DNA of 64,000 nt from a phage. The notes below the pieces were generated by a model. It was not told the origin of the DNA. It saw nothing but the letters and a program-made list of their open reading frames with translations, and searched no databases. Below are positions 51,211-54,579 of the stretch, piece by piece. The translations under genes and the position numbers were made by a program. The first letter of the stretch is position 1. Every line of letters starts with the position of its first letter. The DNA is taken from sequence record PV730299.1. One strand, written 5' to 3'.

Positions 51211-51232
51211 CCCCGTTTATTGAAATGTTCTT

Positions 51233-53143
51233 TTAGTTCAAGACATATTTGATCAGTCCACAATTCCAAATCCTGACCAGCCCGGCTTCGGTTGCTAACT
51301 GATCTTCTGTCTTACCTTCTACGTCATAGCCCATCTGAGCAAAGTCTGCCTTTCTGAATCCAAACTTGTGCTCCCGCATGAGAGTCCCTGGTTTGTGATA
51401 TTTGTAATCCGGGTCTTGTATTTCTTCCTCGACGAACCCGTGAGAAAGATAAATGTTGGACAACCGACTAACAACACACCTATCGCCAAAGGAGAAAGTC
51501 TTCACGCCATCCCAGAGATGTTCCTTGTAGTACGCCAGCAGTTTAGAGAACGCCCCGTGAATGCCGTCGGAGGCAAACCTCGTAAGTTCCATACACTGTT
51601 CCCCCTTCACCACACGTTTGATAAAGGTCATAACAGCCCGAACCCGGTTGTCTCTCTTATCTCTGAGGAGAAGGTAATGCGTGGCTGAATGAATGGTGCC
51701 CTGTATGTGTTGAGAGGCCAGGAGTTCTAGAATGTCCGACTTCTTACCTTCCTCTACATAACACTGACGGGCGTACCCGGATGGCTTCTTGATCCCGAGT
51801 TTGGCAGCCAGCAACCCTTTCACGATCTCTGGGTTGTTATGCCACTCATCTTCCCAGATGTGTATCAGCTGAACGCCTTGTGCTTCACATGCCTCTGTCT
51901 TTTCGAGATGATAACGGCGATATTTGTGTATCTCACTATGCCAGTACAGGCCGTTAAATTCAATTGCCAGTTTGTGGTCTGGACAGTAGATGTCGATCTG
52001 GCGCCGAGTTCCACCGTCCTGGCAATTCATATTGTTTAGGAGGGTGAAGTCTGAGCACTTGTGCACAACACCCATTGAGGCGAGCCACTCGGATATTTCT
52101 ATTTCTGGTTTGGACTGGAATTTACGGAAAGAAATAATGTATTCCCAAACGGATTTGTTTTGCATAGCATACGGAACGCCATATAACTCAATATTTTTTA
52201 TCCTGGCATTTTCTAAGCAAACTTCTGTGTTTAGAGAGCATTTAACCCCGTAACGATCGAATACAGTTTTTCCTATCTTATCTCGAATTTCTTGTACTTG
52301 TCCCGTCCATTCCTTTCCGTATCTTTCTAAATTGGTCTTGATCAATTTGTTTAAGACTGCAGCATCACGCATAGGATGACCGCCCTCATACTCCCCGAAT
52401 GCCTTCTCTCGTGCCGCTTTACCTTCTGGGGTAGCATACCAAGACCGAGCACCGAGGGTTTCCCAGGCGCGCTGTTTGACCTCTTCCACCTGCATCGGAT
52501 GCTCAACTCCATACTTCTTCATCACGGAATCTTTGAACAGCTGTCGCCCATGTTCTGATTGCATAACATGTTCCGCACCGAAACGCCGAAGTAAGGTAGC
52601 TCTTGCCCTACCCTTTACAGATTCATTCTGGAATACGTTGGATACACCATATTTGTCAAGGATTGTCTTGTCCAAGACTTTACGGGCTTCACCACCCAAC
52701 TTCATTGATTGGGCATAGCATTCCTCCGAACAATATTTCCGGTAGGATGGGATAGACTTCTTAATCTCGACAGAAGTTCTAGCACCGCAGGTGATACAAG
52801 GTGTTGGTTTGACGTCGTGTAACCAGACCAATACACGGGCGTTCACGGATTCTTCAGAGTTGTGCTGGTTGGCATATTTGAGGGGGTCTACGCCAAGGTA
52901 AGATGACAACAGGGGTGAAGACAGTAGTTGGTAATTCAGGTTGCCATTCTTCATATAGAAATATTCACGGATGAAGTCTTTGTAGTCATCTTCAGTTTGA
53001 ATAAATTTGGCGTCCGACATTAACTCTGGGGAGAATTTGATACCAACTGTTTGGTAAAAGGTTCTGCAATCAACACTACAGTAGACGGCCTTTGACTGGG
53101 CATTGACGAATGAGGTTTTGCATGTCCGGCATATATGAATCAT
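51233..53143 (-). CDS. putative homing-endonuclease-like protein (zinc ribbons, tandem YG...PMQ repeats, C-terminal Vsr/DUF559-like nuclease domain)
   Basis: 636 aa; N-terminal CRTCKTSF...CSVDC and CITCGARTS...CSEEC; five repeats of the KYGV.HPMQ type; C-terminal QIDIYCPDHKLAIEFNGLYWHSE resembles the PD-(D/E)xK Vsr-like motif. Confidence 0.6.
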   Translation of the reverse strand: MIHICRTCKTSFVNAQSKAVYCSVDCRTFYQTVGIKFSPELMSDAKFIQTEDDYKDFIREYFYMKNGNLNYQLLSSPLLSSYLGVDPLKYANQHNSEESVNARVLVWLHDVKPTPCITCGARTSVEIKKSIPSYRKYCSEECYAQSMKLGGEARKVLDKTILDKYGVSNVFQNESVKGRARATLLRRFGAEHVMQSEHGRQLFKDSVMKKYGVEHPMQVEEVKQRAWETLGARSWYATPEGKAAREKAFGEYEGGHPMRDAAVLNKLIKTNLERYGKEWTGQVQEIRDKIGKTVFDRYGVKCSLNTEVCLENARIKNIELYGVPYAMQNKSVWEYIISFRKFQSKPEIEISEWLASMGVVHKCSDFTLLNNMNCQDGGTRRQIDIYCPDHKLAIEFNGLYWHSEIHKYRRYHLEKTEACEAQGVQLIHIWEDEWHNNPEIVKGLLAAKLGIKKPSGYARQCYVEEGKKSDILELLASQHIQGTIHSATHYLLLRDKRDNRVRAVMTFIKRVVKGEQCMELTRFASDGIHGAFSKLLAYYKEHLWDGVKTFSFGDRCVVSRLSNIYLSHGFVEEEIQDPDYKYHKPGTLMREHKFGFRKADFAQMGYDVEGKTEDQLATEAGLVRIWNCGLIKYVLN

Positions 53144-53247
53144 GATCTAATCCTACCTGTTATTATTTTAGAATTATATGCTGGTTTGTTTCAAAAGAAA
53201 ACCCCGCACGTTGGCGGGGTTTGTCAGGGTTAAGGACAACTGTTCGA

Positions 53248-54579
53248 TTAGAACAGGCCTTTGATCAGCCCTTTACGGAAATACACGTTGGTGTCCTTGG
53301 CGATACCATCCGCAGTCACATAGACCTGTGGATCCTGGTTCGCTGGGATCTGAACGAATGGGTTAGCACAAATCCCGTAGCGGGTCTTGAACGCCATACG
53401 TGGTGCGAAGGTGGTTTCACCCTGGGTGCGGTACATTTCCAGCGGCACGTATGGCGCGAAGAAGATACCAGCATCCAGCGCGGTTGCACCTTTGTATGCC
53501 AGGGTGATGTATTCTGCTACTGCATACGGGTCGATATAGACACGCATACCGTTAGACAGCACACCAGCGAAGGTCTGACCAGTCGGATCAATCGCCAGCT
53601 TGGTGTTTTCCTGCAGCGCCGGAGCATAATCCAGCATGCCGGACATCGCCAGAGCGGATGCTACGTTCGGAGAGCACAGAACACGGTTGCCTTTACCACG
53701 ACGGGTGTCAACACCGATGCCGTTCGCTTCAACTTCCAGCATGAAAGTCATGTACTTCCATTTTTCCAGCGCCCAACGACCGGAGATGTCAGTGGAGATA
53801 TCTACGATACCGTTGGTGCCGAATTTTTTGAAGCGTACTGCGCTGAAGTTCATGGTGCGGATAAACTCACGGTTCATCTCTGCCTGAATTTCAGTTACCA
53901 TCACGTCGGACAGGATGCTGTCAACGTCTTCGCCGTGGATCGCCATCATGTCCTGGCGCAGTTCGTGGCTGTAGTCAGCGTACAGGCCGCGAGACTTCGC
54001 AGTCACGGTTGCTTTCTGAACGGTGATACCAACACGTGCCCATGGGTTGGTGGTGGTGCCCAGCAGTTCAGCGTCGGCAGTTGACATACCTTTACCGATG
54101 GTGGTGGTAGCAGCGCCGGAACCTTCGATCTCAGTCTGGGAGAAGCCAGATGGGTCGCCAGCCTGTGCAGTGTCGTCACCGGAGTAACCGGAGTTGGCTT
54201 CGTTCATGAACAGCTCAGCGCGGGACTGGGCAGTGTTGGAGCCGTCTGCAACACCCTGGCGAGCACGCAGTGCGAAGATCTGACCGTCAGGACCAGACAG
54301 CGGCTGAACGCCGAAGAAGTCCATCGCGATGTTGACCGGAGCCAGGCGTTTGGCCATGTCGATCAGGACTGGCTGCCATTTGCCCACAGAGGCGTTCACG
54401 GAGCCAGGAGCGTCGGATTCGCCCAGGTTTTTGGCGTTCCACTCAGCCTGGTTTTGCAGCAGACGGACGGCAACGTTTTCGGCAGAAAGCGGCTGGATGC
54501 TTTCAGATTCTTTCTGAAGAACTGGCAGCCACTGCTCGCGCATTTGTTCAGTAACAAGTTTCTTAGCCATGATGGTCAT
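53248..54579 (-). CDS. 23: major capsid protein, T4 gp23-like
   Basis: 443 aa; blocks FALRA, NPW, KSRGLYADYS, EMNREF, FAGVL, RVYIDPYA, YKGATALDAGIFFAPYVPL, FKTRYGI, NPF, YFRKGL are collinear with T4 gp23. Confidence 0.95.
   Translation of the reverse strand: MTIMAKKLVTEQMREQWLPVLQKESESIQPLSAENVAVRLLQNQAEWNAKNLGESDAPGSVNASVGKWQPVLIDMAKRLAPVNIAMDFFGVQPLSGPDGQIFALRARQGVADGSNTAQSRAELFMNEANSGYSGDDTAQAGDPSGFSQTEIEGSGAATTTIGKGMSTADAELLGTTTNPWARVGITVQKATVTAKSRGLYADYSHELRQDMMAIHGEDVDSILSDVMVTEIQAEMNREFIRTMNFSAVRFKKFGTNGIVDISTDISGRWALEKWKYMTFMLEVEANGIGVDTRRGKGNRVLCSPNVASALAMSGMLDYAPALQENTKLAIDPTGQTFAGVLSNGMRVYIDPYAVAEYITLAYKGATALDAGIFFAPYVPLEMYRTQGETTFAPRMAFKTRYGICANPFVQIPANQDPQVYVTADGIAKDTNVYFRKGLIKGLF

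Follow-up and report, generated by a model that had tools for sequence, protein, structure and literature searches.

The 64,000-nucleotide stretch of phage DNA analysed here (PV730299.1; referred to below as the window) carries, beside the major capsid gene, an ORF for a 636-aa protein. An earlier note, made from the sequence, had read the gene as a mobile endonuclease with an unusual combination of domains. We propose that it most probably encodes a Hef-type free-standing homing endonuclease, that is, a selfish, mobile, site-specific DNase; however, the domain combination is not unusual, since the same architecture is found in most of the best 120 of 1,772 homologs.

Results

The ORF is intact from ATG to stop (Table 1). 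Its immediate upstream neighbour on the same strand encodes the major head protein (53248..54579; phrog_138, E 2.4e-145), as the earlier note had it; the scaffold, prohead protease and portal genes precede that gene. The 636-aa protein matches phrog_3339, "homing endonuclease" (E 6.1e-144), rather than a non-nuclease family, has 85% amino acid identity to the annotated homing endonucleases of phages PC3 and PH4, and is identical to the protein of a cluster with 16 member sequences (P0001). An NCBIfam search with the protein gave no match, and neither paralogs of the endonuclease nor tRNA genes were found within the 64-kb window.

An AGGA Shine-Dalgarno sequence (53151-53154) precedes the gene, as does a promoter-like site, one of 8 sigma-70-like matches observed in the region versus 4.4 expected, all of them consensus matches only. 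A terminator-like hairpin forms the upstream edge of the variable slot described below and is kept in relatives with and without the endonuclease; the LIMEstone1 annotation likewise has a terminator at this point. The gene would thus have its own promoter-like site and ribosome-binding site, with a terminator upstream, an arrangement that speaks for a homing endonuclease.

Table 1. Features of the endonuclease locus, with coordinates in the window
Feature	Position	Strand	Basis
Probable Hef-type free-standing homing endonuclease gene	51233..53143	-	Complete ORF, 636 aa + stop; phrog_3339; PC3 and U5 Hef matches
Segment without counterpart in SKML-39, which lacks the endonuclease: endonuclease cassette and upstream region	51225..53189	-	blastn breakpoints
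GNAT-fold, Mom-like domain, aa 448-636	51236..51802	-	Invariant R459, H479, Q481, R522, G530, Y565; near-invariant S533, K534, D554
Vsr-like nuclease domain (I-Bth0305I/"EDxHD" lineage), aa 343-447	51803..52117	-	Key residues E347, D384, E395, N397, H402, H412, K415
DUF7487 repeat array, aa 152-340	52124..52690	-	Pfam PF24308, E 8.7e-24
Second zinc ribbon, YacG/treble-clef-like, aa 116-142	52718..52798	-	Conserved family-wide
N-terminal helical domain, aa 27-115	52799..53065	-	AF2 helices 24-108, pLDDT >90
First zinc-ribbon motif, CxxC...Cx3C, aa 5-26	53066..53131	-	Motif scan and AF2 model
Sigma-70-like promoter match, TTGAAA-18-TAAAAT	53165..53194	-	10/12 consensus, upstream of endonuclease ATG; putative function
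Intrinsic-terminator-like hairpin and T-run	53199..53222	-	9-bp stem, 6 GC pairs; directly after capsid gene stop

Five modules make up the protein: a zinc ribbon with a helical domain, a second zinc ribbon, seven to eight DUF7487 repeats, a Vsr-fold nuclease and a Mom-like GNAT domain. Both of the Cys4 zinc ribbons named in the earlier note were found as CxxC...Cx3C motifs. In the AF2 model the first has strands at residues 2-4 and 11-13 (pLDDT ~85-90); it is kept among alleles of the capsid slot but not across the wider family. The helical domain, to which no Pfam family matched, is likewise specific to these alleles, which have 30-56% identity to the 636-aa protein over the N-terminal ~190-220 aa (aa 4-196/221 of the protein from the window). 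Across the family, C116 of the second zinc ribbon is invariant and C119 and C142 are conserved in at least 90%; its likeness to YacG is weak (Pfam match in 5 of 40 members; PDB 1lv3, E 0.93).

The tandem repeats of the KYGV.HPMQ type are real, as seen from a match to DUF7487 (85.1 bits versus a gathering threshold of 27), a family matched by all 40 aligned homologs, and repeats of this type do accompany such nucleases. Their count has to be revised, however, from five units of 25-30 aa to seven canonical units, whose basic period is 23 aa and whose first residues are aa 164, 187, 210, 251, 274, 297 and 320, and one degenerate unit of ~18 aa after aa 233. The AF2 model presents nine regularly spaced helices in loop-helix units, and we infer that the whole is a modular DNA-binding array. 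It is also the hypervariable part of the gene: compared with A221, identity is 67% with a 26-aa indel, whereas the remainder is 93-99% identical. The number of repeat motifs per protein ranges from 1 to 19 across the family, and slot alleles have ~2 to 8 DUF7487 repeats. A search with the repeats alone returned only proteins of at most 324 aa and is no fair census of architectures; it did reveal that DUF7487 can stand alone, or with a nuclease but without the Mom-like domain. No mention of DUF7487 was found in the literature searched.

The Vsr/DUF559-like motif IDIYCPDHKLAIEFNGLYWHSE does lie in a domain of that kind, but this domain is central (aa ~343-447) and not C-terminal, as had been supposed. 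The matches of the single protein to DUF559 (19.2 bits versus a cut-off of 20.6) and MTES_1575 (23.9 versus 38.2) fall below the Pfam gathering thresholds; it is the profile of the whole family, together with the structure model, that supports the nuclease assignment. The family profile found I-Bth0305I as its sole significant match among PDB sequences (E 4.3e-7), and in the structure-model search the same enzyme was the match with the highest sequence identity (26%); the domain has the Vsr fold and is homologous to I-Bth0305I. The acidic residues of the PD-(D/E)xK core, D384 and E395, are invariant, and E347, D384, N397 and H402 are kept in 105-119 of the best 120 of 1,772 homologs.

I-Bth0305I is the biochemically characterised prototype of the Vsr-like "EDxHD" homing endonucleases, in which the motif consists of E170, D196, N208, H213 and D222 (PDB 3r3p; PMC3239194); mutation of D222 (Vsr D97) abolishes cleavage. 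This composite motif is not literally matched here: catalytic D222 aligns with an invariant His, H412 (kept in 119 of the best 120 of the 1,772 homologs), and this counts against the homing-endonuclease reading. U5 Hef has the same His; therefore, H412 is a feature of the Hef subgroup and not a defect of the 636-aa protein. The HNH and NUMOD profiles proposed in the earlier note drew a blank: no HNH family and no NUMOD1, NUMOD3 or NUMOD4 matched in Pfam at E <= 1, and NUMOD was absent from the 25 families commonest in the 40 members. An HNH identity, the label of some relatives (phrog_559), was rejected for lack of a profile match and in view of the Vsr fold, and such labels are mis-annotations; a NUMOD-containing endonuclease was also rejected for lack of a profile match.

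The last 190 aa, which are highly conserved, had no place in the earlier description. They adopt a GNAT fold, and alignment of the Mom profile with the profile of this domain gave an hhalign value of 94.6% (E 6.5e-8). Direct BLASTP comparison of the domain with Mu Mom was negative (E 9.4); the link to Mom is visible with profiles only. An hmmsearch of PDB sequences with the domain profile did not find Mom and returned weak generic GNATs (E 0.012-0.14). The 636-aa protein did not match Pfam Mom (PF25680) at E <= 1 and so lies below gathering, and just 3 of the 40 aligned members match the Mom model at E <= 0.1; two relatives, P0027 and P0031, are above gathering (31.6 and 28.2 bits versus 27.1). 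These searches suggest homology to Mom at the level of profile-profile comparison only.

In the 40-sequence alignment H479, R522, D554 and Y565, which align with Mom H58, R111, D149 and Y159, are 97-100% conserved, as strongly as the catalytic residues of the nuclease, and the overlap with activity-supporting residues of Mom is enriched (Fisher p 8e-4). R111 is reported to be specific to Mom within the GNAT superfamily (PMC7261163). D554 is kept in 111 of the best 120 of the 1,772 homologs; U5 Hef has Asn there. Of three other residues of Mom, Y59 aligns with I480, S124 with a variable position and R151 with a variable S/R/C position; in Mom mutagenesis, R151 is essential, and S124 and Y59 mutants lose activity or drop drastically. 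The alignment at S124 is uncertain, with S533 (38 of 40 sequences) one helical turn away. An insertion at aa ~586-620 has two short helices; its alignment with the HTH-like insertion of Mom (residues ~175-209), which is required for activity, is a forced global one of low confidence, as is the resulting pairing of Mom H183 with the conserved H592. The AF2 model has pLDDT >90 over both catalytic domains, and the family-invariant residues are all present in both.

The capsid slot was compared in eight relatives. In the comparison with SKML-39, blastn homology breaks at 51224 and 53190, exactly at the cassette edges, and SKML-39 has five small ORFs in place of the endonuclease; the slot of SenASZ3 has no endonuclease either. 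The cassette is self-contained, bounded by the capsid gene terminator on one side and the promoter region of the following gene on the other. Alleles of 662 aa occupy the slot in A221, PC3 and PH4, one of 508 aa in fGh-Ecl02, and alleles of 490-491 aa, with ~2-3 DUF7487 repeats in the 490-aa ones, in LIMEstone1 (F-LimVII), ChubbyThor and YX22. Among the three closest alleles the catalytic domains have 82-100% identity, compared with 63-70% in the 490-aa alleles, and identity to fGh-Ecl02 is mosaic within the gene (Mom-like domain, 100%; N-terminal region, 60%). The gene is thus free-standing and intergenic, beside an essential gene, with both presence/absence and allelic polymorphism. The position after the capsid gene had been called a hotspot of T4-like phages. 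The slot is indeed recurrent, with segD between genes 23 and 24 in T4 (PMC2988022) and F-LimVII plus six other alleles in Ackermannviridae; however, the source phage belongs to the Ackermannviridae and is "T4-related" only in an older, loose sense.

Discussion

The invariant D384 and E395 of the Vsr/DUF559-like, PD-(D/E)xK-superfamily core and the recurrent slot uphold the assignment as a mobile endonuclease. By analogy with I-Bth0305I and with U5 Hef, which according to a review cleaves nrdB (PMC2988022), homing can be envisioned as follows. When the phage and a relative without the gene infect the same cell, the protein would bind a long DNA site near the slot through its zinc ribbons, its repeat array and probably its positively charged Mom-like domain. 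The Vsr-like domain, probably acting as a dimer and with a metal site that includes D384, E395 and H402, would make a double-strand cut. Recombinational repair from the endonuclease-carrying genome would then transfer the gene, along with nearby markers of the capsid region, to the recipient.

The founding member of the family is Hef of T-even phage U5 (Sandegren, Nord and Sjoberg 2005; GenBank AY262133). Homology to U5 Hef extends beyond the nuclease core: BLASTP gave E 4e-31 and 34% identity over aa 382-633, with weaker matches in the zinc ribbon and KYG repeats (E 6e-4 and 2e-3). Relatives have several paralogs each; the Dickeya phage LIMEstone1, for one, has four Hef-like genes (F-LimIII, F-LimVII, F-LimVIII and F-LimX). 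Of these, F-LimVII sits in the slot after the capsid gene, as here, and has 54% identity to the 636-aa protein over the C-terminal 380 aa. U5 Hef, the LIMEstone1 proteins and the 636-aa protein alike have a zinc ribbon, KYG repeats, a Vsr-like nuclease (YH..K) and a Mom-like C terminus, and all are encoded by free-standing, intergenic genes beside an essential gene. The protein studied here differs from U5 Hef in its insertion site (the capsid slot versus nrdA/nrdB), in D554 and in its N terminus, where an additional zinc ribbon and a helical domain find no alignment with U5 Hef, and from the 490-aa alleles in its 7-8 repeats. I-Bth0305I, unlike this free-standing gene, is intron encoded; it carries NUMOD/HTH motifs where the 636-aa protein has zinc ribbons and DUF7487 repeats, and its chain stops behind the nuclease domain, without a Mom-like domain. 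Taylor et al. placed Hef-type enzymes in the Vsr-like family (PMC3239194). The family is therefore already named, as Hef-like and as Vsr-like "EDxHD", and the protein is an ordinary member of this very large family in a known insertion slot.

The conservation of the Mom residues counts against simple homing, since a domain that did no more than bind DNA would have no obvious need of them. Mu Mom (PDB 8bv8; PF25680) is a GNAT-fold, Gly-tRNA-dependent DNA adenine carbamoylmethyl-transferase, a role in adenine modification shown in 2026 (PMC13219725), and it has in common with the C-terminal domain the GNAT fold, the profile-profile homology and the H58/R111/D149/Y159 equivalents. The domain probably keeps part of the Mom substrate pocket. 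It is most likely a nucleic-acid-binding, possibly base-flipping, recognition module; that it is catalytically active, placing a site-specific adenine adduct from aminoacyl-tRNA (as Mom does) or acyl-CoA at or near the recognition site of the enzyme itself, seems to us rather unlikely. If it were active, the protein would be like a Type IIG restriction-modification enzyme with Mom replacing the methyltransferase.

A rival reading is a single-chain enzyme whose Mom-like domain would covalently mark adenines in the DNA of its own phage and whose nuclease would destroy unmodified DNA of the host or of competitor phages, serving primarily conflict or exclusion between genomes and not gene copying. 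Such a function was predicted for Mom domains fused to REase-fold nucleases (PMC7824862, section 3.4.7), and the conserved equivalents, their enrichment and the chemistry of Mom itself all fit it. We nevertheless hold it to be decidedly unlikely: R151, S124 and Y59 have no conserved counterpart, U5 Hef, for which nuclease activity is reported, carries Asn opposite Mom D149, the 636-aa protein falls below the Pfam Mom threshold, few of the aligned members match the Mom model at E <= 0.1, and several divergent paralogs per genome, essential-gene neighbours, presence/absence polymorphism and a hypervariable DNA-binding array typify homing endonuclease genes and not a single genome-wide protection system. 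Many free-standing endonuclease genes are inactive remnants, and the array rearranged relative to A221 and an adjoining 1.25-kb deletion would suit a decaying or domesticated protein that no longer cuts and is either kept neutrally or has come to regulate, by binding DNA, the late or early genes beside it. The intact ORF, the full set of invariant residues in both domains, the identical protein in the 16-member cluster and the confident AF2 model make this very improbable. Less credible still is a Vsr-type mismatch-repair nickase or generic DUF559 housekeeping nuclease that is not mobile; the match to I-Bth0305I, the extra DNA-binding modules, the sporadic distribution, the slot polymorphism and the homology to Hef argue against it.

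As a homing endonuclease, the gene itself is routine, one more allele of a named selfish phage nuclease family in a slot known in LIMEstone1 and others. Only the Mom-like domain, common to the whole family, poses an open question. Its profile matched 19,679 representative clusters, mostly at the C terminus of 450-700-aa proteins (among the best 150 matches), and tblastn matches of the 636-aa protein include 10-12 places in Campylobacter phages and the jumbo phages K64-1, Lak, Paride and PBS1. Iyer, Anantharaman, Krishnan, Burroughs and Aravind (2021) read the Mom-REase fusion as a system of restriction plus protection, and the passages searched make no mention of Hef homing endonucleases (PMC7824862). 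These fusions of jumbo phages are probably the same protein family as the Hef-type nucleases, and the "Hef-like homing endonuclease" and "Mom-REase fusion" literatures appear to describe one very abundant family. No paper linking the two was found in the literature searched, nor one combining "Hef-like" with "GNAT"; "Vsr", "GNAT" and "homing endonuclease" together gave a PD-(D/E)XK survey only, which does not link them. Because the chemistry of Mom is now established and four of its residues are invariant or nearly so here, DNA modification by Hef-type nucleases has become directly testable. Were it true, each free-standing endonuclease would have built-in epigenetic self-immunity, a new principle in homing-endonuclease biology, and the ~20,000 clusters would be a very large reservoir of sequence-specific DNA hypermodification enzymes.

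The alleles of the slot, with conserved catalytic domains and varying repeat number, are natural material for studying how the array sets target specificity, and the endonuclease gene explains the local synteny break after the capsid gene. The adjoining 1.25-kb deletion marks a locus in flux. In addition, the spacer between the capsid stop codon and the terminator occurs in two haplotypes that do not track the endonuclease allele type, a pattern suggestive of recombination, though not decisive.

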